From assembly GCA_023458615.1 (NCBI GenBank), contig JAEWYV010000053.1, positions 1 to 47,714 on the forward strand: a stretch of DNA of 47,714 bases, in the 5' to 3' direction. The notes under the pieces were generated by a model that had not been told where the DNA came from, ran no database searches, and saw only the letters and a list, made by a program, of their open reading frames with translations. This DNA comes from Bacillota bacterium. Its GTDB lineage: Bacteria > Bacillota > Clostridia > Christensenellales > CAG-138. How positions within the stretch are numbered: position 1 is the first letter of the stretch; the number at the start of each line of letters is the position of its first letter. This document shows positions 4,791-46,754 of this stretch, piece after piece. The position numbers were made by a program, and so were the translations under genes.

Positions 4791-5363
4791 TTGGCATCCG
4801 ACTTCGGACTAAAGATTGGGATCGAGGGCGAAAAAGAGTTCAAGAAAGCCCTCTCGGAGATCAAAGAGTCTGCCGTTCAAGCTGATGACGCTGGTGGGCG
4901 GTTCGACAAGCTGGGTTTGGTTGTAAAGGGCATCGGTGTCGCGCTCGGCGCGGCCATGGCGGCGATCGGTACGGCTACGATTGTGGCGGGCAAAGCGCTC
5001 GTCGATATGACGTTCAACACTGCGGCATATGCGGATGAAATGCTGACGCAGAGTTCCATCACCGGCATGAGCGTGGAACGGTTGCAAGCGTATTCGTATG
5101 CCGCCGATCTCGTGGATGTGTCTTTGGAAACCCTCACCGGCTCTATGGCGAAGAACGTGAAATCCATGTCCAACGACGCCGGTGGGAGTGCGAAGTTTGC
5201 CGAGGCATACGACAGCTTCGGAGTGTCAGTGACGAATGCGTATGCTGGAAGTCTTGATGGAATGACAAGCTATAACCGCCAAGGCTCAGACCGAGCGCTG
5301 CGGTGCGAATTCGATCACCATCCAGATGCTTTAGCTATGATAAGGAATGCAAACAACACTTGA
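4791..5363 (+). pseudogene. Truncated phage tail tape-measure protein (N-terminal relic)
   Basis: TTG start behind AAGGGGG. The N-terminal ~150 aa parallel the resident prophage TMP by eye (IGIEGEKEFKKALSEIK vs ISVKGDKEYSSALKGIK; GIGVALGAAMAAIG...AGKALVDMT...ADEML vs GIGIAIGAVAVAAV...AGKAIFDLT...ADELL). The reading frame then degenerates. No other tail genes are nearby. Confidence 0.65.
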
Positions 5364-6202: not shown

Positions 6203-6481
6203 CTAGATTACTTGCCGTTCTTCTAATGCTAAGTTAATACCTGAATCTGTTAAATTGTTATTTGATCTTTGCTTGAAATCTAAAACGGCTTGAATAACGG
6301 ATAAATTAGAGCTGTTTAAACAAAAAGTATGCAATTCCCATTCTGATAACTCCGCTAATCCCATAATGAGTTCTCTGTAGCGATCCTTCGATGATTGTGA
6401 TATTCTTGCCTCTTGCATATTCTTCATCTCCACATTTCTTATATTTAATATATTAAGCGGTATGGTTGATTTCCTTAACAT
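6203..6481 (-). CDS. Small hypothetical protein, last gene of the minus-strand island operon
   Basis: 92-aa ORF overlapping the upstream gene by 29 nt. An alternative ATG (MQEARI...) lies 9 nt behind a GGAG. No recognisable motif. Confidence 0.45.
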   Translation of the reverse strand: MLRKSTIPLNILNIRNVEMKNMQEARISQSSKDRYRELIMGLAELSEWELHTFCLNSSNLSVIQAVLDFKQRSNNNLTDSGINLALEERQVI

Positions 6482-8039
6482 TACTCATAAAAAAAGCAGC
6501 ATCCACGCTCTCTTGTTTGAGATACAAGAATGTGGCAACTTCACACCGTAGTCGAGCTTTGCTCCTAACAAAAGGTATAATATAATCATTGCTTTTTCTA
6601 ATTATATCACGACCGGTACTAAGTTTCATTGAAAACAAATCGTAAAATCTTCTAGGACCTACTCCTGCGAATTGCTCAAATACTACCTTTAAATCATGTT
6701 CTTCATCCTCATCTTCGCCAATTGAAACTGCGTCTTTATGTAAATTGGCAGCTTTGCTTTTAAGGTAAGGTTCGATAAATACCAACCGTTTTATGCCAGC
6801 AAAAATTGCGTGACGTGCACAGTTATGGCATGGAAATGTTGTGCAATAAAGTGTTGAATCTTTCAATGACACACCTATGCGACCACAAGTCAACATGGCA
6901 GCCATCTCAGCATGAACAGCTCGACTGAACTCAGTTAAATCTTTTAGTGGTGATTGCAATAGTTGCTGTTTTAAAATATTCTTATATTCCTCCAAAGTCA
7001 TTCCTTTGTAAACATTAGAATCAAAACTGCCATAGTCGAAACTATTAACGATTTCATTAATGATAGTATCGATTTCGTGTTTGTTTGGGTCAAATCCTAA
7101 CGTATAATCACGGCTATCAGGTTTGTCATATCCTTTACGATTATCACAATATTCGACAAGATCTGTTCCTGGCCAATATTGGCCGCCTCCTGGGGCTGGT
7201 ACATCATTTGCTCCTGTCGATATGATATCACAACCATTTGCAATCACGGCGCCAACTTGGCGAGATAAATCAGCAGACCGTAATGACGAAGAATAAGCCA
7301 TAAACATTGCATACTCATCAAAAGTTGGGGTGATATAGGGGTTGCCAAAAAGCAAGTCAAGGATACGGGTTAGTTGCTTACTAATTATCGGTTGCTTATC
7401 TTTTTTTAAAATTTCCCGAGTTATATTTTTATATTTCTTTTTTTTATCTTTCCATCCTTTAAACGATAGATGAAAATCTGCGAGCTGAAAAACCCTCTTT
7501 GTATGTTGCCCATAATCTAAGCTTTCTTCTGCATCACGTTCAATCAGTCTCTCAGTCTCTTCACAATTTATGATTTTGACTTTCTCCAAATAATCCTTTC
7601 GATCATCGTCCGATTCATTGATAGCAAACAAGTAAAAGGTTGAAGTGTAGATTTCTTTAAGCTTATTAACCTCATCTTCGTGCTTTAGGGAGTCAATAAT
7701 ATATGCTACGCCTTTACTAGCATCCATTTTGCAACGGTTACTAATAACCTGTTCGGCCACACCTTGTGCCAAAATCGCGGTGCTGTATTTTCTACGCAAC
7801 TCATTCCCTGCATTCATGAGCTGCCGAGTACTAAGGTATTTATCAGCACTGAGTGGTTCAGTAAGAGTAGGTTCTAATAAATCCTTTGAAATCTTAATTA
7901 CACAAGTCTCGTAATTGAATTCTTTTAATTGATTTGACAACTCATCGATGATAATCGAATTGTCAGTCCCTACGGCACAAGCTAAAGCGATAACAATTTC
8001 TGAGAAAGCAAGATTTTTGTTTGAAATACTGTTAAGCAT
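6453..8039 (-). CDS. AvcD/Dcd-like defensive deoxycytidylate/dCTP deaminase (P-loop kinase-like N-half plus zinc deaminase C-half)
   Basis: 528 aa. C-terminal VHAEMAA...TTFPCHNCARH is the cytidine/dCMP deaminase zinc motif. The N-half has a degenerate P-loop (ALACAVGTD) and a dNMP-kinase-like IIDSLKHEDEVNKLKEIY segment. GAGGTGA SD. Confidence 0.65.
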   Translation of the reverse strand: MLNSISNKNLAFSEIVIALACAVGTDNSIIIDELSNQLKEFNYETCVIKISKDLLEPTLTEPLSADKYLSTRQLMNAGNELRRKYSTAILAQGVAEQVISNRCKMDASKGVAYIIDSLKHEDEVNKLKEIYTSTFYLFAINESDDDRKDYLEKVKIINCEETERLIERDAEESLDYGQHTKRVFQLADFHLSFKGWKDKKKKYKNITREILKKDKQPIISKQLTRILDLLFGNPYITPTFDEYAMFMAYSSSLRSADLSRQVGAVIANGCDIISTGANDVPAPGGGQYWPGTDLVEYCDNRKGYDKPDSRDYTLGFDPNKHEIDTIINEIVNSFDYGSFDSNVYKGMTLEEYKNILKQQLLQSPLKDLTEFSRAVHAEMAAMLTCGRIGVSLKDSTLYCTTFPCHNCARHAIFAGIKRLVFIEPYLKSKAANLHKDAVSIGEDEDEEHDLKVVFEQFAGVGPRRFYDLFSMKLSTGRDIIRKSNDYIIPFVRSKARLRCEVATFLYLKQESVDAAFFMSNVKEINHTA

Positions 8040-8062
8040 CTAATTCACCTCATACCGTATAA

Positions 8063-9850
8063 TTAAATTGGGGGTGGCAGAACGTTTACAAAACTGCTAG
8101 ATTCGCTTAGTAGATCTTCGGAAGGGCTATCGCTGGTGAACATCTCAAGAGCAAATTTGCAATTAAGGTATAGCTGAGATAGATATGCATACTTCCTCGC
8201 AGTAATATCAGGACTGAATTTGCTCTTGGAATGTGCCGCGTTAATTCTGTTATCAAACTCGATTTTAAGAGTTTTTTCTGCTGATAGCTTTAGTGATTCG
8301 ATACATGACACGATTCTCTTATTGCTTATTCGAGTTAGCGAATCTTTATCAATAGTCCATAGGTTACTCTTCTCCTCATCATCAAAACTTCCGATTCCAA
8401 CTTCATCGAAGAGGATTTCTACTTGTTTATCTCCTAATACTAAAAAACCATTATTGCCGTATGGTTGCTCCCCTCTTGACAAATTCTTCACTTCGAGAAA
8501 AATCAGAACACCATTTACATTTAGTAAGTTGCGTATTAATTTGAATGTATTTTCCCAATCTTCTAAAGGGATTTCATGTAACACATTCATGAGGATTACA
8601 ACGTCAAATTTTCCATAATATTTAGTAAGTTTCGATTCTTCAGTGACCAACATAATTTTTGAATCATACTGGTATTTGCGGTCAGGTTTGGGTTCATAAG
8701 CAAAATAGTTTAACTGCAAGTTGCCATTTGAGTTTTCGTATTCGCTTTTGAATGAATCCCATATCCGGCATTTTCCGGCTCCAAAGTCGAGCACTTCTAA
8801 AGGTCTATCTTTTTGTATGTCTCTTAGTTTTGTTATTGTTCTGACAAACTGTTCGTTATTGGAATTCGTGTGTTCAATAACATCTGGCGAGTAAAAACAC
8901 TCTAATATAAACTTATAGAACTGCCAGCTTTCTATTGATTTTAGAAACTCAAATACATCGATATTTTCAAGACCAACTAAACAATTAAAAGCGTTTTTAT
9001 AAATACTACTGTTACGTCGTAAAACACGGCTATTTTCAACTAAAACAATGCTTTCGAAATCAAATAAAGGTACAAGGAATAAAGAGTGTGTAGCTACCCA
9101 AACTTCACTAATACTCTCGGATTCTAACAGCAGATTCATGAGAAAAATTTGCTTTTGAGGATGGAGATGTTGTTCGGGCTCATCGATAATTACAACCAGC
9201 TTTTTATTAGAAGTAGTTTCAATAAAAAATAAAAAGAGCGTAAAATAGAACAACATCAATTCCCCAGGTGAAATCTCTGTCGCCATAAACGCATCTTCCA
9301 AAGTGCAAGTATGCACTACTTCATTATTAAAATATTTATTTACAATGATTTCGTTTTTGTCTTCTTCGAATCTTCGATTCACTAGCTCTTGAAATATTTT
9401 ATTAAATTTATCAAGTGCTGCATATGCTTTCTTTCTTTCCGCGGGAGCTTTAATTTTTGCCAACCCAAAGAAGCCTTTTATGAAATTACAGCGATCTTCA
9501 GCCTGCTCAACGACCTTTAAAAAATCACAGTAGTTTATATCGATATTTCCGTGCAGCAAATCAAAGACATAAGGATTTTTTTCTTGTTCTAAGTCTACAT
9601 CATTATCCACGATTGTGTGTTCAAAAATGTGTGGTGATATCTCTGGAAAATAAAGAGTTACTGTGACAGGATCATCTTTACTCCGTTGCGTTTTTAAATC
9701 TTCAATGGCTTTAAGGAACCTAGTTTTCCCTGCGCCATTTTCGCCAATGACTAAATTCACATCAGAATAACTGATTTCGTCAGCATTCATAATGTGATGA
9801 GCTAGAAATGTTTTTTGATCGTTTTTTGAAAAATTGACCAACTTTCTCAT
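8063..9850 (-). CDS. ABC/OLD-type ATPase fused to a class-I SAM-dependent methyltransferase-like domain
   Basis: Walker A GENGAGKT, SPGE, Walker B VVIIDEPEQHLHP, ATHS. C-half has VLDFGAGKC (motif I), FDVVILMNVLHEIP and NGVLIFLE. Confidence 0.6.
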   Translation of the reverse strand: MRKLVNFSKNDQKTFLAHHIMNADEISYSDVNLVIGENGAGKTRFLKAIEDLKTQRSKDDPVTVTLYFPEISPHIFEHTIVDNDVDLEQEKNPYVFDLLHGNIDINYCDFLKVVEQAEDRCNFIKGFFGLAKIKAPAERKKAYAALDKFNKIFQELVNRRFEEDKNEIIVNKYFNNEVVHTCTLEDAFMATEISPGELMLFYFTLFLFFIETTSNKKLVVIIDEPEQHLHPQKQIFLMNLLLESESISEVWVATHSLFLVPLFDFESIVLVENSRVLRRNSSIYKNAFNCLVGLENIDVFEFLKSIESWQFYKFILECFYSPDVIEHTNSNNEQFVRTITKLRDIQKDRPLEVLDFGAGKCRIWDSFKSEYENSNGNLQLNYFAYEPKPDRKYQYDSKIMLVTEESKLTKYYGKFDVVILMNVLHEIPLEDWENTFKLIRNLLNVNGVLIFLEVKNLSRGEQPYGNNGFLVLGDKQVEILFDEVGIGSFDDEEKSNLWTIDKDSLTRISNKRIVSCIESLKLSAEKTLKIEFDNRINAAHSKSKFSPDITARKYAYLSQLYLNCKFALEMFTSDSPSEDLLSESSSFVNVLPPPI

Positions 9851-9874
9851 ATACAGCCCCGAAGTGTTTGATTA

Positions 9875-9903
9875 AATATATAATAGTATCTAGAAAAACA
9901 CAA
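9875..9903 (-). promoter_or_regulatory. Putative sigma-70 promoter for the minus-strand island operon
   Basis: On the minus strand: TTGTGT, 17 nt, TATATT, about 25 nt upstream of the ATG at 9850. Confidence 0.35.
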
Positions 9904-9969
9904 TCTTTTTTTCTTTCTCCTGTAAGTTACTGGTGTGGCTAAGTAATGACGATTTAAAAAGCGGAAAAT

Positions 9970-9999
9970 TTGCAGTAATATCGATCTTTGTGTTATAAT
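9970..9999 (+). promoter_or_regulatory. Putative extended -10 promoter for the plus-strand island operon
   Basis: TTGCAG (9970-9975), 18 nt, TGtTATAAT (9991-9999); AGGAGG SD at 10013-10018. Confidence 0.5.
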
Positions 10000-10023
10000 A
10001 TACTATTAAATTAGGAGGCGTTT

Positions 10024-10542
10024 ATGTTTATAAAAGCTTCTTCAGAATGCGAAGCGATAGAAAGAATTAAAGATGAAAAAGCGAATATTTCGCAGGGTGA
10101 AACTTTTTATATAGAAATTCAAAAGACGGCAAGCAGAGACACTCATGTGGAACCAAATAAACAATTTTACATGCCGATAATCGACAACGGGATAAAAATA
10201 AATCAAGATATAGTTTTTTGTAGTGGCAAAAGTATTTCTATTTTTCATGAGTTTTCAACAATATTCAATAATATTGATAATATGCCACAAAGTATCGGGC
10301 CATGTACAAAAAATGTTAATGATAATAAAGAATTGACCAGCTATTACATTTCGGTTCAGAGAAAAGAGGATTTGTTAATATTAACATTGAATCTGCATCG
10401 AATTGAAGTTGAGCATTTGCCCAATATTATTCATCAATGGGATCAGCTATGTTCAAGGCTTGTAAAGCATGTGAAATATAAGAACAAAGTGAAGCTTTGT
10501 ATCATAGGAAAAACAGGTGGGGAGAAGCTTGAGTTATTTTGA
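10024..10542 (+). CDS. Hypothetical protein (first gene of five-gene operon)
   Basis: 172 aa, strong SD, AT-rich codon usage consistent with neighbours. No motif recognised. Confidence 0.6.
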   Translation: MFIKASSECEAIERIKDEKANISQGETFYIEIQKTASRDTHVEPNKQFYMPIIDNGIKINQDIVFCSGKSISIFHEFSTIFNNIDNMPQSIGPCTKNVNDNKELTSYYISVQRKEDLLILTLNLHRIEVEHLPNIIHQWDQLCSRLVKHVKYKNKVKLCIIGKTGGEKLELF

Positions 10543-10978
10543 ATTATTACACACAGAAGCCATGAAGAGCGGATGTATGCTCCGAAAATATGCAGCTCTC
10601 GTTGAAAAAAATGGAGAAGTAGTCGGTCTCGGACACGCAACGGTTCCAAACGGGATGCCTTGTGAAGAACTGGGCTTTTGCACCCGCGAGTTAGCGCAAA
10701 AAGAAGTTGACAATAATGCCGAATGTTTCGAACATTGCAGAGTGGTTCACGCAGAAGTGTGTGCCATTCTCCAAGCTGAAAGAAATCTACTTCCAGGAGC
10801 CACGTTACATTTATTAGGAATTTGTTCAGAAAACAGGCAGATATACTCAGGAGCGTTTCCATGCGCATTATGTTTAAACATTATTGAATATGTTGGAATT
10901 AGTAGAATTTGCGTCTTTAGTGCTAGAAACGAACTAACAACTTTCATATTCAAGGAGGGCGTTTGGAATGCTTTGTAA
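10517..10978 (+). CDS. ComEB/dCMP-deaminase-family zinc deaminase
   Basis: GTG start behind AGGAAAA. VVHAEVCAI...GAFPCALCLNII catalytic zinc motif, plus upstream Cys-rich segment (CEELGFCTRE...CFEHC) as in dCMP deaminases. Confidence 0.7.
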   Translation: MGRSLSYFELLHTEAMKSGCMLRKYAALVEKNGEVVGLGHATVPNGMPCEELGFCTRELAQKEVDNNAECFEHCRVVHAEVCAILQAERNLLPGATLHLLGICSENRQIYSGAFPCALCLNIIEYVGISRICVFSARNELTTFIFKEGVWNAL

Positions 10979-11813
10979 ATCAGAAATCAAGGCTATTATT
11001 GAAAAGGGAGCAGTTGTCCCAAAGCCTAATGATGACACTTGGAATAATCCTGCAAAAATCGATCTTCGATTGGGAGAACTATGCTATGTTAGTAGCGATC
11101 CGGATAATATTATAGAACTGGCAAAAGACAGCGATTCTATAATTCTTCCTCCAAATGAAGTTCTGCTATTTCAATCACTCGAGAAATTCAACTTGCCAGG
11201 TAATATCGTTGCACATATGGGCCTTCGAATGAAATACATTTCAAAAGGTCTACTTATGCCAAATGCAACTCATATTGACCCAGGTTATAAAAATTATATA
11301 TTCGGACTTATTTATAATTTATCGAATCAAAATGTCCATATATTTTACAAGGAAGCTATAGCAACTATCGAGTTCGAAGAGATTAAGTTTTCGGGACTAG
11401 AATGCTCGCTTTACGAAGGTTCCATGCAGGAAACAAACTTTAAAACCTTTGTGCAAAATAGAGTAAAAAGTTCATTAGGAATGCTTCAAAAAAGGACAAG
11501 AAAAGCGGTTAGGAATTCAGAAAGGTCATTAAGGATCGGTGGTATCGTGCTTGCTTCAATCTCAGCGGTTATAACTGCAGTCACGCTAGTAATAGCGATA
11601 CCATCAATTTTGGGAATCACAAATTACCAGGATATTGAATACGAGTGTCAAGAGAATGTTCAAAAAATAGAAGAGCTTACAGCAAGGATAGATTCTCTTG
11701 AAAAACAGGTTAAGTATTATGAGAATAACACAATTGAAACTCAAATTGATCCCAATGCGTCGGATTCCGTCGATCAAGGGCTTACTCCAGGAGGATCCGT
11801 AGATGGCCAGTAA
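10968..11813 (+). CDS. dCTP-deaminase/dUTPase-fold protein with C-terminal TM helix and coiled coil
   Basis: AAGGAGGG SD. KIDLRLG...LPPNEVLLFQSLEKFNLP...THIDPGYKNYIFGLIYN aligns by eye with Dcd. GIVLASISAVITAVTLVIAIPSILGI is a TM segment, followed by heptad-like IEELTARIDSLEKQVKYYE. Confidence 0.6.
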   Translation: MLCKSEIKAIIEKGAVVPKPNDDTWNNPAKIDLRLGELCYVSSDPDNIIELAKDSDSIILPPNEVLLFQSLEKFNLPGNIVAHMGLRMKYISKGLLMPNATHIDPGYKNYIFGLIYNLSNQNVHIFYKEAIATIEFEEIKFSGLECSLYEGSMQETNFKTFVQNRVKSSLGMLQKRTRKAVRNSERSLRIGGIVLASISAVITAVTLVIAIPSILGITNYQDIEYECQENVQKIEELTARIDSLEKQVKYYENNTIETQIDPNASDSVDQGLTPGGSVDGQ

Positions 11814-13098
11814 AGAGGTCTCTCTTTTATATTATAATGGAACTGATGCAGCGCATTTTGGTAATTCGAGAAAAGAGTTCCCCCCGATCGGATTACTTTA
11901 CCTCGCAAGTTCTCTTGAAGCTCGAGGCTATTCGGTTGCATTATATGATATTCAGATGATGAGTCCAGATCACTTGAAAAAGATTAGCAATACTGTAATA
12001 GGATTAAGCATAAACGCTAGTTATGTCGTACCATACTTCGTTGATATTATAGAAAAGTTACCCAAAGCAAGGCTAATCATAGGAGGAGGGCAGCATGTTT
12101 CTGCTTCTCCAAGAGAGAGTATAGATCAATTCAGGCTTGATTTTGCGTTTATTGGTGAGAGCGAACATACTCTTCCAGACTTCTTAGATAACTATTTAAT
12201 TAGCAACATTGGATATGAAAATATTCCCGGTATCGCATACATAAAAAATAGAGAATACAAATATACTGGATTAGCTAGTCGGGAAAAATGCTTAGACGAT
12301 CTTCCATTTCCCGCCCGACATTTACTTCCAGAGCAAGATATACTGCTTGATAAACGAATATGGGGCAAGGATATAAAAAGCGTTTCCATGATTACATCTC
12401 GGGGGTGTGTATACAATTGTAATTTTTGCGGGAACCTTTATAAATCATTTTATCATCGTTCTGCACAAAATATTGAAAACGAGATAATCCATATCGAACA
12501 ACAATATCCCGAGGCAAAGGGTATAGTTTTCTTGGATGAAAATTTGTTGTTTTGTGAAGATCATATACTCGATTTATGTAATATAATGAAGAACCATAAT
12601 TTCCTGTGGACAGCGAATGCACGCGTTGATTATATGAATGAGACTGTAGGACAAGCTATGTATTCTTCAGGCTGTGTTGAAATTAAATATGGGGTTGAGA
12701 GCGGAAGTCAGAGAATTCTGAATCGCATGAATAAAAAAATCACCTTGCGTCAAGTGGAAACTGCATTAAAGTGCTCGGCAGAAGTTGGAATATATAATAA
12801 ATGCTTCCTCTTATATGGTTATCCTGGTGATAATATGGAGAGTTCTAATGAAACGATTGCGTTTCTTCAACGAAATCGGAGATATATTAATAGAGTAAAT
12901 TTATTTGATTATACTCCATTGCCAACATCTAGAGATTACCATACATTATTGCATAAAAATTCATATCAATGGGGAGATTTCAGGATATATCGGCAGCACC
13001 AACACTGGTGGGGTTCGGATAGTGAGTACGAAGAAATGTTAAAAGGTTATTTTAATTTAAAAGAATATATCGATAAAAATTTTACAGAAGAAGTGTGA
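11803..13098 (+). CDS. Radical SAM enzyme with B12-binding-like N-terminal domain
   Basis: AGGAGGA SD. CVYNCNFCG (CxxxCxxC). N-terminal PPIGLLYLASSLEARGYSVALYD resembles the cobalamin-binding domain of class-B radical SAM enzymes. Confidence 0.7.
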   Translation: MASKEVSLLYYNGTDAAHFGNSRKEFPPIGLLYLASSLEARGYSVALYDIQMMSPDHLKKISNTVIGLSINASYVVPYFVDIIEKLPKARLIIGGGQHVSASPRESIDQFRLDFAFIGESEHTLPDFLDNYLISNIGYENIPGIAYIKNREYKYTGLASREKCLDDLPFPARHLLPEQDILLDKRIWGKDIKSVSMITSRGCVYNCNFCGNLYKSFYHRSAQNIENEIIHIEQQYPEAKGIVFLDENLLFCEDHILDLCNIMKNHNFLWTANARVDYMNETVGQAMYSSGCVEIKYGVESGSQRILNRMNKKITLRQVETALKCSAEVGIYNKCFLLYGYPGDNMESSNETIAFLQRNRRYINRVNLFDYTPLPTSRDYHTLLHKNSYQWGDFRIYRQHQHWWGSDSEYEEMLKGYFNLKEYIDKNFTEEV

Positions 13099-13103
13099 AG
13101 TAG

Positions 13104-13712
13104 ATGGAAGAAGTCATGGTAATCAATATGCAAACCTTTATGAGTCTAGTTGATGATGGACTAGAAACAAATAGTGTGTACATTGACAAAAACAAGAAAC
13201 TTCTAGATAGAATTTTAGATACACACGAATATATACCCCGAAGCGTTGCCGAACAACAAAGTAATTATAAGCAAATAATACCTTATGCGGTTTTAAGCTA
13301 CCAGGATTATTTTTTTTGCCTAACTAGATTAAAAGCTCAAACAGAAACTAGACTTCATGGGAAACTATCCATTGGTGTTGGTGGCCATATCAACCCTATC
13401 GAAGAGGAGCATCCAGAACCCGTTCTAGCAGGTCTATATAGGGAGTTGTTTGAAGAAGTCGATATTTTTACAGATTATAGCCTGAAGTATATTGGTGTTA
13501 TTTATGAAGAAAGCAGTGAAGTAAGCTGTTTTCATCTTGGTCTTTTGTTTGTATTAAACGTTGATTTTCCACGCGTTATCGTAAGAGAACACGAAAAAAT
13601 GACAGGCGATTGGGTGTCGCTGGAAAAATTAAGGACCGCTTTAAATATTGAGACTTGGTCATCGTTGATTATTCAGAATTGGAACAATATTCAAAATACA
13701 ATCGAGATATAG
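13104..13712 (+). CDS. Nudix-like hydrolase
   Basis: GGHINPIEEEHPEPVLAGLYRELFEEVDI contains E-x7-RE-x2-EE-x-(D)-I, a Nudix-box variant with an insertion after the first Gly. The start codon could lie a few codons downstream. Confidence 0.5.
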   Translation: MEEVMVINMQTFMSLVDDGLETNSVYIDKNKKLLDRILDTHEYIPRSVAEQQSNYKQIIPYAVLSYQDYFFCLTRLKAQTETRLHGKLSIGVGGHINPIEEEHPEPVLAGLYRELFEEVDIFTDYSLKYIGVIYEESSEVSCFHLGLLFVLNVDFPRVIVREHEKMTGDWVSLEKLRTALNIETWSSLIIQNWNNIQNTIEI

Positions 13713-31739: not shown

Positions 31740-32513
31740 ATGAAACACATCAATCATCTAATTAGAACTATTCTAGTAAGTGCGATTACATTTAGTTTTT
31801 TTCTTTCCCTCGCATGTGCGCCAGGAAGTATGACTGCAAGCGCAACAACGCCGGAACCAACGTCGACGGCGACAGCAACACCCACACCAGAGCCGACGCC
31901 AACGCCAACGCCAGCTGCAACACCAACACCTACTCCCATGCCTGAGTTGACTTATGAGCAAAAAAAGGCATTGTTAGGAATAAACGATGATATGACGCCT
32001 CAAATTGTAGGAACTCTTTACTGTTATAATATAACCTTTAACAATGAAAGTGGAAGAATATGGTGTGTTTCATATACGAATGAAAACGATCCAAATAAGT
32101 ATGAAATGTATAGTGTTTGTAATAGAGAATATTTATTCACACTCCAGCTTCCAGCAGGTGCTACTGGAATATTTGAATATTCGAAATATCTATTCGAATC
32201 AAGTAAGAATCTAAGAAATCTGGTATTGGTAAATTCAACCGCCATAGCTGATATGGCATCGACTTATGATATCTGGAACATTGATTATAATAACAATGGA
32301 TTTTTAAAGAATTTACAGGAGAAAACTAACCAAGACTGGGAAGCAGTTCTATATACACTTCTTTCAAAAGAGCAAATTGTCGACTTGATTATTGATTCTA
32401 CACCGCAAGATGAAATCATACCATTTTGGGTGTATACCCCCGGAGCACAAATTCCAGAAGAGTTAAAAGGAATCTACAGTGAAGAAGATTATCCACCTGC
32501 ACCAGCAGAGTAA
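31740..32513 (+). CDS. Secreted/lipoprotein-like moron protein with Thr/Pro-rich linker
   Basis: Signal-like N-terminus ending ...LSLAC, then TPEPTSTATATPTPEPTPTPTPAATPTPTP. AT-rich body, opposite orientation to the phage genes. Confidence 0.6.
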   Translation: MKHINHLIRTILVSAITFSFFLSLACAPGSMTASATTPEPTSTATATPTPEPTPTPTPAATPTPTPMPELTYEQKKALLGINDDMTPQIVGTLYCYNITFNNESGRIWCVSYTNENDPNKYEMYSVCNREYLFTLQLPAGATGIFEYSKYLFESSKNLRNLVLVNSTAIADMASTYDIWNIDYNNNGFLKNLQEKTNQDWEAVLYTLLSKEQIVDLIIDSTPQDEIIPFWVYTPGAQIPEELKGIYSEEDYPPAPAE

Positions 32514-32577
32514 CGGAAGGTATAGATAACTTAAAGCGATAAATCATCTTACTATAATCTTGCTTATAGGAGGAACC

Positions 32578-33330
32578 ATGACCCACAGCACTCGTACATT
32601 CGCCCTCGTGCTCGTAATTCTGTTCGTATGCACTGCAGGCCTCTTCGCCTGTGCCTCAGCAAACGAGGCGATTCTCGTTAACACGCCGGAACCAACGCCG
32701 ACGGCGACAGCAACACCCACACCAGAGCCGACGCCAACGCCAACTCCGGTTCCAACAACGCAAGCAGAATATGAAGAAGAATATTCAAAATTGGGGATGA
32801 TTGATTCGAATAGAGTTATACCAGGTATTAATCTGAAATTGATAGTATTTAAAACTATAGATAACTGTTATCGAATGGCATTTGGTATATCAACGGTTAA
32901 TAAATATGATAACGGAGGATCTCTTTATGATTTATTTAGTGGAGAAAAATTATTTACTTTTGATAAAAACAGTTTCCCTGCTATTTTAGATAAGCATTCA
33001 GTGGATACTGTAGCTCCTTACAATGAATCCTTGTTGCAAGCGACTTTTATTCGTTTAAGCACTCCATTAAATCAACTTCTTGATTTTCCAGAATTAGGTA
33101 TAGATTTTCCTTTGAGCCGAGAATTGTATGATATATTTGCAGCAGATGATGAAGCAGTTTTTTCTAAACAAGAACTAGGAGACATATTTCTAAAATATAT
33201 TCCGAAAGAATATAGAATGTATGGAGTGGACCTCATTCCTGGAAATCCTAATATGAGGATGACAACTTATCCAGGCCCAACAGTCAGTCCAAGCCCTAAC
33301 CCTACTTCCACAATTTCCCCTGAAAAATAA
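32578..33330 (+). CDS. Paralogous secreted/lipoprotein-like moron protein
   Basis: ATG 32578 behind AGGAGG. Signal-like N-terminus ...GLFAC, same TPEPTPTATATPTPEPTPTPTP linker (62-nt near-identical DNA stretch), divergent C-domain. Confidence 0.6.
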   Translation: MTHSTRTFALVLVILFVCTAGLFACASANEAILVNTPEPTPTATATPTPEPTPTPTPVPTTQAEYEEEYSKLGMIDSNRVIPGINLKLIVFKTIDNCYRMAFGISTVNKYDNGGSLYDLFSGEKLFTFDKNSFPAILDKHSVDTVAPYNESLLQATFIRLSTPLNQLLDFPELGIDFPLSRELYDIFAADDEAVFSKQELGDIFLKYIPKEYRMYGVDLIPGNPNMRMTTYPGPTVSPSPNPTSTISPEK

Positions 33331-37664: not shown

Positions 37665-37822
37665 GATACGTTCGATAAAAGTCCATACTCATAGCAAAGT
37701 AATTAACAGTATAAATGTCTATACCTGTTGCATTGCGAAAGTATGACGGGTTGTATATAATGAACTCAATCGGGCGGCGCACTGCCGTCCTTGGTATCGT
37801 TTACATGAGACGGGAGAATCAC

Positions 37823-39325
37823 ATGGCCGAACAAAACTCCGCCAACATCGGGTTTGAAAAGCAAATTTGGGATGCCGCTTGCGTGCTGCGCGGAAATCTC
37901 GATGCATCGGAATACAAGCAGGTCGTGCTCGGCCTGATTTTTTTAAAGTACATTTCAGATCGCTTCGACGCGCGCTATCGGGAGCTGAAAGAAGAGGGCG
38001 AGGGCTTTGAAGAGGATATTGATGAGTATACATCTCAGAACATATTCTTCGTTCCGACCGACGCACGCTGGGAGATGATTGCGCGGGCGGCGCACACCGA
38101 GGAGGTCGGCACGACGATTGACAACGCCATGCGCTCCATCGAGAAGGCAAACCGCAGACTCAAGGATATTCTGCCGAAAAACTTTGCGCGTCCAGAGCTG
38201 GACAAGCGGCGCTTAGGCGACGTGGTCGATCTCTTTACCAACATCCGCATGATGGATCACGGCGCGGAGAAGGATATCCTCGGTCGCACGTATGAATACT
38301 GTCTCTCCAATTTTGCCGCATTGGAGGGCAAGCTCGCGGGCGAGTTCTTTACGCCATCCTGCGTGGTGCGCACGCTGGTTGAGGTGCTAGAGCCGTTCAA
38401 CGGGCGCGTGTACGACCCCTGCTGCGGTAGCGGCGGCATGTTTGTGCAGAGCGCAAAATTCATTGAAAACCACAGCGGGAGCATCAACAACATCGCCGTG
38501 TATGGTCAGGACAGTAACCCGACCACATGGAAGATGTGCACCATGAACCTAGCCATCCGCGGCATCGAGGCCGATCTTGGTAAGTATAACGCGGATACGT
38601 TTTTTGACGATTGTCACCCGCTGCTACGTGCGGATTATGTGATGGCGAATCCCCCGTTTAACCTGAGCAACTGGGGCGCGGACAAGCTCAGCGGCGACAA
38701 GCGCTGGGTTTACGGTCTGCCGCCCGCAGGCAACGCCAACTATGCTTGGCTCCAGCACATGATCTATCACCTCGCGCCGGGCGGCAAGATGGGCTGCGTG
38801 CTGGCGAATGGTTCGCTTTCATCTCAATCCGGCGGCGAGGGTGAGATCCGCAAGAATTTCATTGAGGCCGATCTGGTGGAGTGCATCATCGCTATGCCTC
38901 CGCAACTCTTCTATACCACGCAGATTCCCGTTTCGCTGTGGTTTATGAGCCGGAATAAGAAACAAAAGGGTAAGACGCTGTTCATCGACGCGCGCAAGCT
39001 CGGCACGATGGTGTCGCGAAAGCTGCGTGAGTTGACGGACGCGGACATCGCGCAGATTGCCGATGCGCACCGCGCGTTTGTCGCGGGGACGCTGGAGAAC
39101 GTCAAGGGCTTCTGCGCCGTGGCGACGACGGAGGAGATCAAAAAGCAGGACTATATCCTCACGCCCGGGCGATATGTGGGCATTGAGGATGTGGAGGACG
39201 ACGGGGAACCGTTCGACGAGAAGATGCGGCGGCTGACGGAGGAATTGAGCGGGTTGTTTGAGGAGTCGCACCGATTGGAGCAAGAGATCAAGGTGCGGTT
39301 GGGGGCGATTGGATATGAGCTATAA
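37823..39325 (+). CDS. hsdM: Type I restriction-modification methyltransferase subunit
   Basis: Start at ATG 37823 behind GGGAG. N-terminal FEKQIWDAACVLRGNLDASEYKQVVLGLIFLKYISD; DPCCGSGGMF (motif I); NPPFN (motif IV). Confidence 0.9.
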   Translation: MAEQNSANIGFEKQIWDAACVLRGNLDASEYKQVVLGLIFLKYISDRFDARYRELKEEGEGFEEDIDEYTSQNIFFVPTDARWEMIARAAHTEEVGTTIDNAMRSIEKANRRLKDILPKNFARPELDKRRLGDVVDLFTNIRMMDHGAEKDILGRTYEYCLSNFAALEGKLAGEFFTPSCVVRTLVEVLEPFNGRVYDPCCGSGGMFVQSAKFIENHSGSINNIAVYGQDSNPTTWKMCTMNLAIRGIEADLGKYNADTFFDDCHPLLRADYVMANPPFNLSNWGADKLSGDKRWVYGLPPAGNANYAWLQHMIYHLAPGGKMGCVLANGSLSSQSGGEGEIRKNFIEADLVECIIAMPPQLFYTTQIPVSLWFMSRNKKQKGKTLFIDARKLGTMVSRKLRELTDADIAQIADAHRAFVAGTLENVKGFCAVATTEEIKKQDYILTPGRYVGIEDVEDDGEPFDEKMRRLTEELSGLFEESHRLEQEIKVRLGAIGYEL

Positions 39326-40340
39326 AGACACAGAGATCATCATGTTCCAGTCCGCGGACGGAGCGACAAAGATAGATGTTCGAATGGAAGATGAAACCGT
39401 TTGGCTGACGCAGGCGCAGATGGCGGAGCTATTTCAAACGACACCACAGAATATAACCCTACACATAAAGAATGTGTATTCGGAAGGTGAACTCTTTCAG
39501 GACTCAACTTGTAAGGAATACTTACAAGTTCAAAACGAAGGCGAAAGAAGCGTTTCGCGCAATGCGAAGCACTACAATCTTGACGTCATCATTGCCGTTG
39601 GGTATCGTGTGAAATCCCCGCGCGGCACACAATTCCGCATTTGGGCGACGGAGCGTTTGCGCGAGTATCTGGTCAAAGGGTTCACCATGAACGACGACCT
39701 GCTCAAACAAGCAGGCGGCGGGAATTATTGGAAAGAGCTGTTGGAGCGCATACGGGACATTCGCTCCAGTGAAAAGGTGTTTTATCGCCAATTGCTCGAT
39801 CTCTTCGCAACAAGCGTGGACTACAACGCAAAATCGGATGAATCTAAGCGGTTTTTCCAGATTGTGCAGAACAAGCTGCATTATGCCGTAAATAAACAAA
39901 CCGCGGCGGAAATCATCTTTTCCCGCGCGGATGCAGAGCAGCCCTATATGGGCATGAAGTCGTTTCGCGGGGAGCAGCCGCATAAGGAAGACGCGCTGGT
40001 TGCCAAGAATTATCTGGACGAAAAGGAGCTTGCGGTGCTGAACCGTATGGTTTCCGCGTTCTTTGATTTGGCGGAGCTGCACGCGTTGAACCACGAGCAT
40101 ATCTATATGCGGGATTGGCTGCCGCAGGTGGATGATTTTGCCGAGCGGTATGGTAAGGGCGTTTTGAAGAACGCGGGGTTGGTCAGCCGGGAAGCTGCGA
40201 TTGAGAAAGCGGCAGCGGAGTATAAAAAGTATAGTAAGCGTGTGGAGGATTTGCCGTCCGCTGCGGAGCGGGATTATCTGGCGGCGGTGAAGCAGGCGCA
40301 GAAGAAGTTGGGCGGGAAAGCCGGAGGCGAGAAGGAATGA
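39315..40340 (+). CDS. rhuM: RhuM-family protein embedded between hsdM and hsdS
   Basis: ATG 39315 overlaps the hsdM stop. ...TKIDVRMEDETVWLTQAQMAELFQTTPQNITLHIKNVYSEGEL...YNLDVIIAVGYRVKSPRGTQFRIWATERLREY is the typical RhuM signature. Confidence 0.8.
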   Translation: MSYKDTEIIMFQSADGATKIDVRMEDETVWLTQAQMAELFQTTPQNITLHIKNVYSEGELFQDSTCKEYLQVQNEGERSVSRNAKHYNLDVIIAVGYRVKSPRGTQFRIWATERLREYLVKGFTMNDDLLKQAGGGNYWKELLERIRDIRSSEKVFYRQLLDLFATSVDYNAKSDESKRFFQIVQNKLHYAVNKQTAAEIIFSRADAEQPYMGMKSFRGEQPHKEDALVAKNYLDEKELAVLNRMVSAFFDLAELHALNHEHIYMRDWLPQVDDFAERYGKGVLKNAGLVSREAAIEKAAAEYKKYSKRVEDLPSAAERDYLAAVKQAQKKLGGKAGGEKE

Positions 40341-40400
40341 GGGATTGTTCTGTTGCCTGCGGGTGGAGGTTTGGGAAAGCGGTGGAGCGGTTGGGGGTGA

Positions 40401-41639
40401 GTGGGTATGGGGAGTGATCTTTTTCCAATTTCGTCAATTGCAACAAGAATTACAAAAGGCACTACTCCTACGAGCATAGGTAGCTCGTTTGTAGAGTATG
40501 GCATAAACTTCGTAAAATCGGAGAGTATTACAGGCGCAAGAAACCTCGATCATTCAAAATTCTCACATATAGATCTAGCGACACATAATCGGTTGTTACG
40601 TTCTCAATTAGAAGAGAACGATATTCTTTTTTCAATGGCGGGCGTTTATCTGGGAAAAACGGCTATAGTTACAGAGAAAGATACTCCTGCAAATACAAAT
40701 CAAGCGGTCGCTATCATAAGAATTGATACATCAAAAGCGAATTTCAAATATGTATATTACTGGCTGTCGCAACGTTATATAACTGAGAGCGTCAACGCAG
40801 CATGTGCTCAGTCTGCTCAACCAAACATCAATCTAGCGCAAATTGGGAGTATTTTATTATGGTTACCAAACATTGAAACGCAACGTTCTATCGCCGCCAC
40901 CCTCTCCTCCCTCGACGATAAAATCGAACTAAACAACCGCATCATCGCCAACCTCGAAGCGCAGGCGCAGGCGATCTTCAAAAGCTGGTTTGTGGATTTT
41001 GAGCCATTTCAGGATGGCGAGTTTGAAGAGAGCGAGCTGGGGTTGATTCCGAAGGGATGGAGGGTTGCCCGTCTGGGAGAATTATGTGAAAGTGTCTCAA
41101 CTACACATGATTTCAAAAAGCGCAAGCTGATTTTTCTTAATACAGGAGATATAGATCAAGGTCGGTTCTTGCACTCGAACTATTCTGCTGTGGACTTAAT
41201 GCCGGGGCAAGCGAAGAAGTCAATCAAAAAGCATGATATTCTTTTTAGTGAGATCAGACCAATCAATAAACATTTTGCTTACGTGAATTTTGACTCTGAA
41301 GACTATGTTGTTTCTACAAAACTTATGGTAATAAGGAGCAAGAAGATTAACAGTAGGCGGTTATACCAGTATCTTACTAGAAAAGATGTTTTGGAAGAAT
41401 TACAAGTTGAAGCTGAGGCGCGATCAGGCACATTCCCTCAAATACGGTTTGATAATATCCAGCGAATGCTCATAGTAATAGCGTGCAAAGAAATAGAAGA
41501 GAAGTACAGCTCAATACTTGAGCCGATTTACGAACTAATAGATCAAAGGATTGATGAGAATAAACAATTAGTTATCGTTCGCGATACCCTGCTCCCCAAA
41601 CTCATGTCGGGGGAAATAGAAGTGCCGGTGGAGAGATAA
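40401..41639 (+). CDS. hsdS: Type I R-M specificity subunit
   Basis: Two AT-rich target-recognition domains separated by a GC-rich conserved helix LSSLDDKIELNNRIIANLEAQAQAIFKSWF. C-terminal RDTLLPKLMSGEIEV. Start is GTG 40401 or ATG 40407. Confidence 0.85.
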   Translation: MGMGSDLFPISSIATRITKGTTPTSIGSSFVEYGINFVKSESITGARNLDHSKFSHIDLATHNRLLRSQLEENDILFSMAGVYLGKTAIVTEKDTPANTNQAVAIIRIDTSKANFKYVYYWLSQRYITESVNAACAQSAQPNINLAQIGSILLWLPNIETQRSIAATLSSLDDKIELNNRIIANLEAQAQAIFKSWFVDFEPFQDGEFEESELGLIPKGWRVARLGELCESVSTTHDFKKRKLIFLNTGDIDQGRFLHSNYSAVDLMPGQAKKSIKKHDILFSEIRPINKHFAYVNFDSEDYVVSTKLMVIRSKKINSRRLYQYLTRKDVLEELQVEAEARSGTFPQIRFDNIQRMLIVIACKEIEEKYSSILEPIYELIDQRIDENKQLVIVRDTLLPKLMSGEIEVPVER

Positions 41640-41642
41640 AAG

Positions 41643-42248
41643 ATGGAAAATTACATCTTTCAAGTTGCAGTGCAACATGATTGGTTTGATTACGCTGCCA
41701 CAGCGGTCTCCTTGTTGATGTCTTTTGTTGCTGTTTGGATCGCAATAAGTACCGCAAGGAAACAGAACAAGATTAATCTCTTTAAGGAACGAGCGGATCT
41801 ATACTATTACTTATTTTCATATCTTCACACTTGGTCTGTTGTATTTGAAAACACATCGGGTCCAATAACAATTTCGAATGCTGTCTCAATGTTGGGTAGT
41901 TATTATGAACTACGATGGGTATCTGGATTTCTACATAGTAATTCTACCATGCAGAGCTTCAACAGTGATTACACACATGAATCACAGATTATGCTTTATG
42001 ATTTAACTACTTTAAGAAGAGTGTTTCTATTGTTTAAAATCGGGAAAAAGGATCGAAAGTATGTAAATGAGTTGCAAGCAAAAGGGGCAGCATTCACATC
42101 TTTAGCAACAGCTCTTCGATTAGGGAAATCCAAAGATGATCCAGACATTATAAAGCTTTCTCAAATGGTGATAGATTTCGACAGTATACTTTTGAAAAAC
42201 AGGGATGATTTTTTAAAACACTTAGAGGCACAACTATCCGTGATTTAA
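41643..42248 (+). CDS. Hypothetical membrane-anchored protein inserted between hsdS and hsdR
   Basis: 201 aa, AT-rich, 3-nt gap after the hsdS stop. One N-terminal TM (AATAVSLLMSFVAVWIAIS). No recognisable motif. Confidence 0.55.
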   Translation: MENYIFQVAVQHDWFDYAATAVSLLMSFVAVWIAISTARKQNKINLFKERADLYYYLFSYLHTWSVVFENTSGPITISNAVSMLGSYYELRWVSGFLHSNSTMQSFNSDYTHESQIMLYDLTTLRRVFLLFKIGKKDRKYVNELQAKGAAFTSLATALRLGKSKDDPDIIKLSQMVIDFDSILLKNRDDFLKHLEAQLSVI

Positions 42249-42264
42249 AAAAGTCGCGAACCTC

Positions 42265-42351
42265 TTGCCCTTCGCCGAATCCAACTACGAAAACTGCATC
42301 CTCCCCCTGCTGGAGGACATGGGCTACACCCGCCAGCACACAAAGAAGTAG
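42265..42351 (+). pseudogene. 5' stub of an hsdR gene
   Basis: 42265-42334 matches hsdR 43447-43516 at 66/70 nt (ATG changed to TTG). The frame runs 28 codons and stops at 42349-42351, where AT-rich DNA begins. Confidence 0.8.
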
Positions 42352-42469
42352 GCGTAATCAAAGAGATATTTTACATAAATGATTTGTAGAAACGCTTTCT
42401 AAATATATGGCAGGAAAAATAACTGTAAATGCCGTTAGCAAGCATCATTGTGATTTTTGAGGGTAATAT

Positions 42470-43444
42470 ATGATCAGTGTTTTCATTGACGCGAATATAT
42501 GGTTATCTCTATATGATTTTTCAAGCGATGATTTGGAACAATTTCGAAAGCTTGGAGACATGATAGATTCTGATGTAGAAATACTTTTCACAGAACAAGT
42601 TAGGGATGAAGTATATAGAAATCGAGAGAACAAGATCAAAGATGTTCTAGGCAAGTTTGAGAAACTTACTTTGCAGATTCCAAATATTTGCAAAGGATAT
42701 GATGAATATGATGATTTTAAGAACAGAATCCGAGACTTGTCGGATAAACACGCTTTCATATTAAGGAAAATCAAACAAGATGCAAAAGAAGGGACATTGC
42801 ATGCAGATAAAGTCATAAATTCTATCTTTGATAGAATTAAACCTCTAGGTTGTACAGCTGAAAATATCGAACATGCTAAACAGCGTTATGATAAAGGCAA
42901 TCCTCCCGGGAAAGATGGAAAATATGGAGATGCAATCAATTGGGAGATTTTACTAGAATTAGCTCCAAAAGGTGAGGATATATACTTTGTTAGCGCTGAT
43001 AAAGATTATCGATCAACACTTGATGAAACTTCGTTTAACCAATTCTTGCAGAATGAATGGAAAACAAAAAAGCAATCCAATTTATTTTTCTATCGCACAT
43101 TAAGCGATTTTATTAGTAATCATGTTAGTACTATAGAGTTGAAATCGGAAAACGAGAAGAAAGAAAGTATTGAAAAACTGCGTTGTAGCGGAAGTTTTTC
43201 TGGAACGCATCATTACATTTCTTTATTAGAACGTTATGCAACCTGGTCACCTGATCAAGTTGTCGAGTTGTGTAGTATAGCGGAAAACAATCCTCAGGTG
43301 GGATGGATAATTGGCGATGATGATGTCCAAGCATTCTACACATCCTTATTGTCGAATGGAATAGCGGACAAAGTGAAATCACCATCTGTCGATTGGGTAG
43401 TTAAAAAACTTAACGAAATTGAGAACCCAGAGAGTGAGGATTAA
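42470..43444 (+). CDS. PIN-like (DUF4935-type) domain protein inserted upstream of hsdR
   Basis: 324 aa, AT-rich, GAGGG SD. N-terminal VFIDANIW...D...E acidic pattern and later YFVSADKDY resemble PIN-like nuclease folds by eye. Confidence 0.5.
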   Translation: MISVFIDANIWLSLYDFSSDDLEQFRKLGDMIDSDVEILFTEQVRDEVYRNRENKIKDVLGKFEKLTLQIPNICKGYDEYDDFKNRIRDLSDKHAFILRKIKQDAKEGTLHADKVINSIFDRIKPLGCTAENIEHAKQRYDKGNPPGKDGKYGDAINWEILLELAPKGEDIYFVSADKDYRSTLDETSFNQFLQNEWKTKKQSNLFFYRTLSDFISNHVSTIELKSENEKKESIEKLRCSGSFSGTHHYISLLERYATWSPDQVVELCSIAENNPQVGWIIGDDDVQAFYTSLLSNGIADKVKSPSVDWVVKKLNEIENPESED

Positions 43445-43446
43445 CA

Positions 43447-46677: not shown

Positions 46678-46754
46678 TGGTAGCGGCGATCTGATTCGAA
46701 CAGATGACACTCCGGGTATGAACCGAATGCTCTAGCCAGCTGAGCTACGCCGCC
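46678..46754 (-). tRNA. tRNA with CAU anticodon (elongator Met, or Ile2 if lysidine-modified), CCA encoded
   Basis: The reverse complement GGCGGCGTAGCTCAGCTGGCTAGAGCATTCGGTTCATACCCGGAGTGTCATCTGTTCGAATCAGATCGCCGCTACCA folds by hand into a cloverleaf. Acceptor stem is 7 bp with G1-U72; U8, A14, GG in the D loop, anticodon loop UUCAUAC, TTCGAAT T-loop. Confidence 0.9.

Follow-up and report, generated by a model that had tools for sequence, protein, structure and literature searches.

Gene layout and genomic setting

The window analysed here, the whole 47,714-nt contig JAEWYV010000053.1 of a Bacillota bacterium (Clostridia, Christensenellales, CAG-138; assembly GCA_023458615.1), carries on its minus strand a cassette of three genes that includes an anti-phage deoxycytidine triphosphate (dCTP) deaminase. 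In order of transcription these encode a 595-aa fusion of an ATP-binding cassette (ABC)-type ATPase with a class-I S-adenosylmethionine (SAM) methyltransferase (MTase) (8063..9850, called from its open reading frame (ORF) and Pfam; ATPase-MTase below), the 528-aa AvcD/DCD-family deaminase (6453..8039, called from its ORF, NCBIfam and PADLOC), and a small partner of 71 aa with a predicted three-helix fold and an LSEWEL variant of a core that reads WPxWK in its relatives (6203..6418). The effector family is already known, and what is new to the curated libraries searched is the trio itself, the ATPase-MTase family and the small partner, none of which is in PADLOC 2.0, NCBIfam 20 or Pfam. Neither partner turned up in the searchable literature, which covers few subscription-journal papers, so that absence from it is not proof; the only regulator found there for deaminases of this family was the AvcI RNA.

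A first-pass annotation of the window had reported three ORFs of 595, 528 and 92 aa, all of which are present on the minus strand (the last at 6203-6481), and on rereading the sequence we found the 23 nt that separate the ATPase-MTase stop from the deaminase start (8040..8062, minus strand) as they had been described, with a Shine-Dalgarno sequence, GAGGTGA, at 8045-8051, 5 nt ahead of the deaminase ATG. The smallest gene had been described as 92 aa long and overlapping the deaminase end by 29 nt; the ORF is real, but this length and overlap do not stand, the start being likelier at M22. The M22 ATG at 6418 has a GGAG of its own (6428-6431) 9 nt upstream, an alternative ATG at 6427 directly abuts that GGAG, and a 71-aa product (P0132) is what public gene callers predict as well. 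Because of the GGAG spacing and the public call, we most likely have a gene at 6203-6418 that starts 34 nt past the deaminase stop with no overlap. Upstream of the cassette is a divergent AT-rich intergenic region of 173 nt (9851..10023). Its role as the promoter region is presumed, because a consensus promoter scan gave no convincing site, promoter and terminator sites being fewer than in shuffled sequence.

The cassette lies inside a low-GC island of ~8 kb (6.0-14.0 kb; ~35% GC, vs. 45-51% to the left and 55-61% in the prophage to the right). This island is placed directly beyond the prophage lysis genes, and the terminase, portal, major head, tape-measure and lysin genes of the prophage are read along the minus strand, starting at ~29.4 kb and ending at 13.8 kb. 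We take the cassette to be accessory cargo at the prophage end. No direct repeats flanking the island were found, and Rfam gave no RNA family match within it.

The deaminase

Deaminases of the AvcD/DCD family convert dCTP and deoxycytidine monophosphate (dCMP) to deoxyuridine nucleotides, which starves phage DNA synthesis. The 528-aa protein had been taken for an enzyme of this type at first pass, and we likewise assign it by sequence to this known anti-phage family, because it scores above the curated cut-off and keeps the catalytic motifs. It reached 429.2 bits against NCBIfam NF041025 ‘anti-phage dCTP deaminase’ (cut-off 400; aa 14-473 on profile positions 1-434 of 437), an E-value of 1.5e-150 against the PADLOC dCTPase model and 59 bits against Pfam dCMP_cyt_deam_1 (cut-off 25), and its identity to the anti-phage dCTP deaminases that NCBI names in Dickeya, Photobacterium, Serratia and Tautonia is 42-45%. 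Its homologues fill >5,000 clusters at E <= 1e-10; a PDB search found no full-length relative. The setting also suits the family, in the window a low-GC accessory island by a prophage lysis cassette and, for one homologue (locus L192), the company of Hachiman and NACHT genes. The protein thus groups with the anti-phage enzymes, and a housekeeping dCMP deaminase or kinase is rejected on the NCBIfam and PADLOC scores together with this setting.

The protein consists of an N-terminal lysine-less P-loop/kinase-like domain and a C-terminal zinc deaminase domain. We compared 13 deaminases, six from trios and seven stand-alone, in one alignment. The HAE zinc-binding/catalytic motif (aa 376-378; 6906..6914, minus strand) and the PCHNC zinc-binding motif (aa 403-407; 6819..6833, minus strand), both reported at first pass, are confirmed in the sequence, and H376, A377 and E378 as well as P403-C404-H405-N406-C407 are invariant in the alignment. 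The degenerate P-loop noted earlier is also there, but as a trait of the whole family rather than a local peculiarity: the window motif ALACAVGTD aligns with a family-wide GxxxAVGT that has no lysine, and G24 is invariant. What does set the trio-type enzymes apart is a Lys-rich insertion between the two domains (~8-20 aa across trio types), found in 6/6 trio-type deaminases and 0/7 stand-alone ones; in the window it is SFKGWKDKKKKYKNITREILKKDKQ (~aa 193-217; 7389..7463, minus strand), and it could serve as a docking or modification site. In the 576-aa enzyme of Escherichia coli AW1.7, the P-loop-like motif and the zinc site are both required for defence (10.1101/2021.04.26.441389), and this enzyme defends from one cloned gene under its native promoter (Tal et al. 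preprint, 10.1101/2021.04.26.441389). Family deaminases deplete dC nucleotides upon infection (10.1101/2021.04.26.441389).

The ATPase-methyltransferase fusion

The 595-aa protein comprises an ABC-type ATPase (aa 1-~295), a helical linker, a class-I SAM MTase (~330-505) and long C-terminal helices (~510-572). The first-pass annotation had read ATPase and MTase motifs from this ORF, and Pfam agrees, with AAA_21 at 53.8 bits (cut-off 27), AAA_15 at 43.3 (32.1) and Methyltransf_23 at 32.8 (27); the quoted motifs are present and invariant across homologues. These homologues form >100 full-length clusters at 30-46% identity, and their names say no more than ‘AAA family ATPase’. Invariant among them are Walker A GxNGxGKT, SPGE, Walker B DEPExHxHP, AxHS, MTase motif I LDxGxG, NxLHE and GEQP; by residue, G36-N38-G39-G41-K42-T43, S194-P195-G196-E197, D223-E224-P225-E226 and H255 in the ATPase and L354-D355-x-G357 in motif I, where G359 is conserved in >=90%. 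An AlphaFold model (mean predicted local distance difference test score (pLDDT) 77.5) gave an ABC-ATPase, a helical linker, a Rossmann-type MTase and the long C-terminal helices.

Among solved structures, the ATPase domain is closest to the retron Eco8 OLD protein, PARIS AriA, PtuA and GajA. Its best PADLOC matches were AriA, PtuA, GajA and HEC-01A, none of them reaching into the MTase domain, and its NCBIfam matches were far under their cut-offs (PtuA 22 bits vs. 500, MADS3 31 vs. 420; over PtuA, Eco8 and MADS3 together, 22-31 vs. 250-500). Pfam and PADLOC found no nuclease domain (Toprim, DUF4435 or HNH) in the fusion or its neighbours. By these sequence comparisons the fusion is not a member of the PARIS, Septu, Gabija or OLD systems, and would at most work in a similar way. 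Foldseek matched the MTase domain at probability 1.0 to many SAM-MTases, the closest being of small-molecule, sugar-nucleotide and lipid types, at low TM-scores (0.3-0.47); the matches include KijD1, MtmC, O-MTases, cyclopropane synthases and METTL6. The catalytic motif of DNA MTases (DPPY/NPPY or PC) is absent from the conserved columns by inspection, no dedicated profile test having been made, and NVLHE and GEQP are present instead.

We considered whether the fusion is a sensor with interchangeable effectors. This is unsupported, the neighbours of its distant relatives being unrelated genes (serine dehydratase, TatD, multicopper oxidase, ribonucleotide reductase, TadA-like). Since such relatives are found beside unrelated genes, the fusion is an independent unit, able to stand alone, that one lineage recruited to the deaminase. 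Only a single distant fusion locus has a tightly coupled neighbour: in a Treponema metagenome-assembled genome (L007, 7899-12685), a relative at 28% identity ends 11 nt ahead of the gene for a 941-aa HD-domain protein that has no match in PADLOC; this could be a different pairing, of ATPase-MTase with a phosphohydrolase.

Conservation of the three genes together

Loci were drawn from representative genomes, metagenomes, viral contigs and source assemblies, and all were scored uniformly. Wherever an intact fusion of >=38% identity was present, the deaminase and the small protein were adjacent to it (17/17 loci), so that the question raised at first pass, whether the ATPase-MTase neighbour is conserved in the clade, is answered in the affirmative; among fusion relatives of <=34% identity, the deaminase or small protein was found in 0/51 loci. 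The 17 loci represent ~9 sequence types, from Lachnospiraceae, Muribaculaceae, Acutalibacter and gut metagenome contigs, which have diverged to 36-60% identity and yet keep the adjacency, with wholly different flanking genes from locus to locus. One carrier of the trio is an isolate, Acutalibacter sp. JLR.KK004 (GCA_036941085.1). Two gene orders occur. Three sequence types, the window among them, have the co-directional order of fusion, deaminase and small gene, with 23 nt (window), 13 nt (L191) or a start/stop overlap (L192) between the first two; in six others the fusion is head-to-head with an operon of deaminase and small gene. In types L194 and L197 the small gene begins 1-2 nt past the deaminase stop, and elsewhere its position ranges from a few-nt overlap up to ~100 nt. 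The multi-gene variant proposed at first pass is therefore upheld as a conserved trio, but a strict three-gene operon is its minority layout, and the small protein is not specific to the clade (see below).

Two apparent exceptions to the trio rule are both degraded. In L018 the fusion gene is internally deleted. L198 had looked like a natural locus of deaminase and small protein without the fusion, and we reject it as a truncation remnant: homology to its sister loci starts 56 nt inside the deaminase gene, and the event that removed the fusion therefore also removed most of the deaminase P-loop motif.

The pairwise-identity matrices of the three proteins are strongly correlated (r = 0.97, 0.95 and 0.93; Spearman 0.80-0.83; Mantel p = 2e-4, two pairs tested), and 29 exact size coincidences of contigs between the fusion and deaminase match lists lend indirect support. 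Taken together, the sequence comparisons identify the three genes as a conserved, co-evolving module. One trio, on a gut metagenome contig (L192, 1-9561), comes directly after Hachiman (HamA and helicase) and a NACHT/pentapeptide protein, in a compact defence island.

The small partner protein

Every trio locus has a same-strand ORF of 50-72 aa downstream of the deaminase, with the core ...L[IL]xxIxxWP[DE]WK[IL]xx[LF]C[LI]DxSD[LI]...; the window protein belongs, with P0289, P0296, P0299, P0309 and P0317, to a sub-branch that reads LSEWEL[RH][ST]FCL...VIQxVL[DE][FY]K. Profile searches gathered 27 clusters of the family at 90% identity and, at 50%, 52 representatives. The protein had no match in Pfam, NCBIfam, PADLOC or PDB, and a fold search gave nothing below E=2.5. 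The predicted structure has three helices (mean pLDDT 65.5), and the conserved core falls at the turn that joins the first helix to the second. Because dN/dS between related loci is 0.11-0.28 (with dS near saturation), the ORF is judged a real protein-coding gene under purifying selection.

The small protein also appears not to be confined to the fusion-bearing clade. Among ‘stand-alone’ deaminases at 41-45% identity, 5/6 have a small same-strand ORF bearing WPxWK that overlaps or abuts the deaminase stop, in Dickeya (DWPAWKQ), a Photobacterium-type contig (SWPTWKQ), Tautonia (SWPEWKQ), a Vibrio nigripulchritudo plasmid (SWPAWKQ, unannotated) and an E. coli O157:H7 P4-like satellite (EWPEWKK, hypothetical protein WP_000021256.1, starting 2 nt past the deaminase stop). 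The core is kept downstream of these deaminases despite very different GC content. In a six-frame translation of 2.3 Mb the WPxWK motif had 39 matches, many of them true copies, and the two-gene unit of deaminase and WPxWK ORF is found in 12/5,426 complete E. coli genomes. On this evidence from gene neighbourhoods, the ‘single-gene’ deaminase system seems often to have at least one overlooked partner, and annotation tools that call the dCTP deaminase as a single gene probably miss parts of the system.

Family members also turned up away from deaminases. An orphan homologue, P0147 (L200 5999-6175 and L201 209-385), is an unmistakable family member within a run of ~25 co-directional, mostly small ORFs with three PHROG matches, a T4_Y16D domain and an SNF2-type helicase; there is no deaminase within 6 kb in this phage-like region, and a near-identity search of phages and plasmids with the L200 element gave no close match. 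Other copies are repeated (three copies in P0283, two in P0302 and P0304) or fused (P0294, P0308, P0314), and the two repeat or fused copies with locus data are on contigs of ~1 kb with no deaminase preceding. These orphan, repeat and fused forms are at most suggestive of possible anti-defence decoys.

Proposed working of the cassette and its alternatives

We read the cassette as a deaminase effector, a small regulatory or antitoxin-like subunit and a clade-specific ATPase-MTase sensor or controller, a reading that we consider somewhat favoured as a whole. On infection the deaminase would turn dCTP/dCMP into deoxyuridine nucleotides, starving phage DNA synthesis. The small protein would regulate the deaminase as a stoichiometric subunit, most likely by inhibiting it like an antitoxin, in the role of AvcI, and would keep the enzyme inactive until the inhibitor is removed or displaced on infection; the occurrence of orphan copies without a deaminase, and of repeat and fused forms, supports such an inhibitor role. 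The ATPase-MTase would be a clade-specific control module that binds the effector complex, as do AriA, PtuA and GajA, and on sensing a phage cue would release or activate the deaminase complex through ATP binding or hydrolysis. That the ATPase is sensor-like is supported by its nearest solved relatives, all of them defence ABC-ATPases that partner with effectors. Its MTase domain may methylate a component, for which the Lys-rich insertion of the deaminase is a candidate, or may report the SAM or nucleotide state of the cell. A broader version makes the WPxWK protein the protein antitoxin of the family as a whole, its orphan or repeat copies on mobile elements anti-defence decoys, and the ATPase-MTase an infection sensor, added in one clade of gut bacteria, that couples ATP hydrolysis and methylation or SAM sensing to deaminase release; this we put forward only tentatively, as rather doubtful.

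Several points weigh against these readings. The sensor, regulator and antitoxin roles are inferred from sequence and context. Family members defend as single cloned genes, and the partners are therefore not universally required. Distant fusion homologues occur without any deaminase, beside unrelated genes. The MTase fold matches, at their low TM-scores (0.3-0.47), do not identify a substrate. Near-identical pairs inflate the correlation of the identity matrices, and genes simply inherited together on a single mobile cassette would show such a correlation as well. A hidden Markov model of the Firmicute small proteins does not detect the proteobacterial WPxWK ORFs, so that homology between the two sets rests on a short motif and position, and one E. 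coli deaminase of 589 aa (L205) has no small ORF at all, having instead an N-terminal extension and a 520-nt upstream gap. The orphan context on a contig long enough to judge is a single one, and scans of viral contigs (IMG/VR) gave no confirmed small-protein relative, the first scan having used the divergent window copy as its reference.

Of the alternatives, the one that survives best assigns the opposite signs: the small protein would be a positive factor (a trigger-sensing adaptor, an allosteric activator or an assembly chaperone) and the ATPase-MTase a negative regulator or second sensor. A downstream position with translational coupling fits an obligate subunit as well as an antitoxin, the small protein is kept across phyla in otherwise single-gene loci, and neither its sequence nor its predicted fold marks it as an antitoxin. 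Nonetheless the orphan, repeat and fused copies away from deaminases are more easily understood as decoys or inhibitors on mobile elements, and AvcI, the sole characterised regulator of the deaminase family, is an inhibitor; we regard a positive role as unlikely, although it deserves to be kept in view.

Less probable still is a view of the ATPase-MTase as a single-gene system in its own right, defensive or otherwise, that shares a mobile cassette with the deaminase and small protein but does not interact with them functionally. Such a view would account for the fusion homologues of <=34% identity that stand alone beside unrelated genes, for the clustering of defence genes in islands (as at L192), for the ability of family deaminases to work alone, and for the correlated divergence, which co-inheritance on one cassette would also produce. 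It does not sit well with adjacency in 17/17 loci over ~9 types at 36-60% identity, in two gene orders and with different flanks, nor with co-directional gaps of 13-23 nt or a start/stop overlap; moreover the deaminase insertion is found only where the ATPase-MTase is present, and where the fusion has been lost (L198) the deaminase is truncated too.

That the MTase acts on nucleotides or nucleic acid, as effector chemistry or self-protection (e.g., methylating a dU or dC nucleotide or marking host DNA or RNA), is very improbable: among its top fold matches are dTDP-sugar C-methyltransferases that bind substrates linked to a nucleotide (KijD1 and MtmC), and its invariant SAM-binding motifs suggest real catalysis, but TM-scores are low with matches spread over many unrelated small-molecule MTases, inspection found no DPPY/NPPY or PC in the conserved columns, and its joining to an OLD/AriA-type ABC-ATPase points to sensing or scaffolding.

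Comparison with known systems

The DCD system of Tal et al. (E. coli AW1.7/U09; NF041025, PADLOC dCTPase) shares with the window deaminase its family, two-domain architecture, conserved motifs and defence or mobile-element setting. DCD is described as a single gene with its native promoter, whereas the window deaminase has two conserved protein partners and the Lys-rich insertion. AvcID of Vibrio cholerae (AvcD with the AvcI RNA, a type III toxin-antitoxin system) has an effector of the same family and, with our favoured reading of the cassette, shares the idea of a toxic deaminase checked by a small adjacent gene product and freed on infection, the AvcI RNA being the precedent for an inhibited deaminase (PMC10511110, PMC12409362). 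AvcI is a non-coding RNA adjacent to avcD, while the window partner is a downstream protein under purifying selection, accompanied by the ATPase-MTase. As for an AvcI-like RNA at the window, there are 23 nt upstream of the deaminase, and the lack of an Rfam match in the island is to be read with the fact that no Rfam model of AvcI was found.

PARIS (AriA/AriB), Septu and the retron-associated PtuA/PtuB, Gabija (GajA) and the retron Eco8 OLD protein have an ATPase of the same AAA_15/AAA_21 class and the same logic of an ABC-ATPase with a separate toxic effector. Unlike theirs, the window ATPase comes without a Toprim or HNH nuclease and is joined to a SAM MTase, and the effector is a nucleotide deaminase. 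In Clover a nucleotide-depleting effector, the dGTPase CloA, is restrained by a partner enzyme, the nucleotidyltransferase CloB (PMC12265719). The likeness lies in a pool-depleting effector with an accessory enzyme that controls its activity, as we propose for the window; the Clover proteins are unrelated, and the Clover regulator makes an inhibitory nucleotide signal, vs. an ATPase-MTase and a third, small protein in the window.

A 2026 review lists how defensive dCTP deaminases sense infection as unknown (PMC13276650). Two conserved protein partners could answer how these enzymes are regulated and triggered. Should the proposed roles be correct, the ABC-ATPase sensor paradigm of PARIS, Septu and Gabija would extend from a nuclease to a nucleotide-depleting effector, with a methyltransferase added, and OLD/AriA-type ATPases would gain a new sensor-effector pairing. 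The finding is not a new principle; it is a concrete and easily testable handle on deaminase regulation. The E. coli O157:H7 P4-like satellites carry the small partner beside the deaminase, annotated only as ‘hypothetical protein’, and are testable with standard coliphages.

Other accessory genes of the deaminase family

Because neighbours differ among deaminases of <=35% identity, the family appears to carry several alternative accessory genes. On E. coli and Klebsiella plasmids and an E. coli integrative and conjugative element (L208, L210, L211, L213), a ~60-aa ORF is found 13-40 nt upstream of the deaminase, helical, Lys/Glu-rich and always Trp-ended (...IIW, ...ITW, ...LKW); it may be another accessory protein or a marker of an AvcI-like RNA region. 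On Rhizobium and Pseudosulfitobacter plasmids (L214 3536-4075, L215 3631-4149), a hypothetical ORF of ~175 aa overlaps the deaminase stop by 4-8 nt and is a candidate for a third kind of partner. Some deaminases in this identity range have no accessory gene annotated nearby. The L208 type occurs on many Klebsiella pneumoniae ColE1-type plasmids of ~4.6 kb, where the deaminase, with a C-terminal (PV)n repeat tail, is essentially the only cargo. A viral-contig scan for the deaminase gave nothing useful.

Other features of the window

Head-to-head with the cassette, in the same low-GC island, is a divergent five-gene operon on the plus strand (10024-13712) that encodes, in order, a 172-aa unknown protein, a 153-aa dCMP-deaminase-like protein, a 281-aa protein of dCTP-deaminase/dUTPase fold, a 431-aa B12-binding radical-SAM enzyme and a 202-aa TM1382-like/NUDIX-like protein. 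The C-terminal segment of the 281-aa protein has a weak, sub-threshold match to DivIC (septum formation) and is hydrophobic by eye; the radical-SAM enzyme has a weak match to PADLOC PDC-M51A, and a viral-contig scan for its gene gave nothing useful. The operon was not found beside the trio in any other locus. It is a second, unrelated set of dC-nucleotide enzymes and could be a nucleotide-modifying defence or DNA-modification module.

Further along the window is a type I restriction-modification system (37715-46479), with an HsdM-like MTase (37715-39325), HsdS (40401-41639) and an HsdR-like helicase (43447-46479). A low-GC insert between the S and R genes encodes a 201-aa unknown protein (41643-42248) and a PIN_12/PADLOC PDC-S34 protein (42470-43444), and a tRNA-Met gene is at 46678-46754. 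The prophage contains a third low-GC patch (~37% GC; 31740-33330), whose two ORFs, each of ~256 aa and unmatched in Pfam and PADLOC, may be further accessory cargo. At the left island edge, a plus-strand fragment of 190 aa (4791-5363) resembles the N-terminus of a tail tape-measure protein and seems to be left over from another prophage or a rearrangement.

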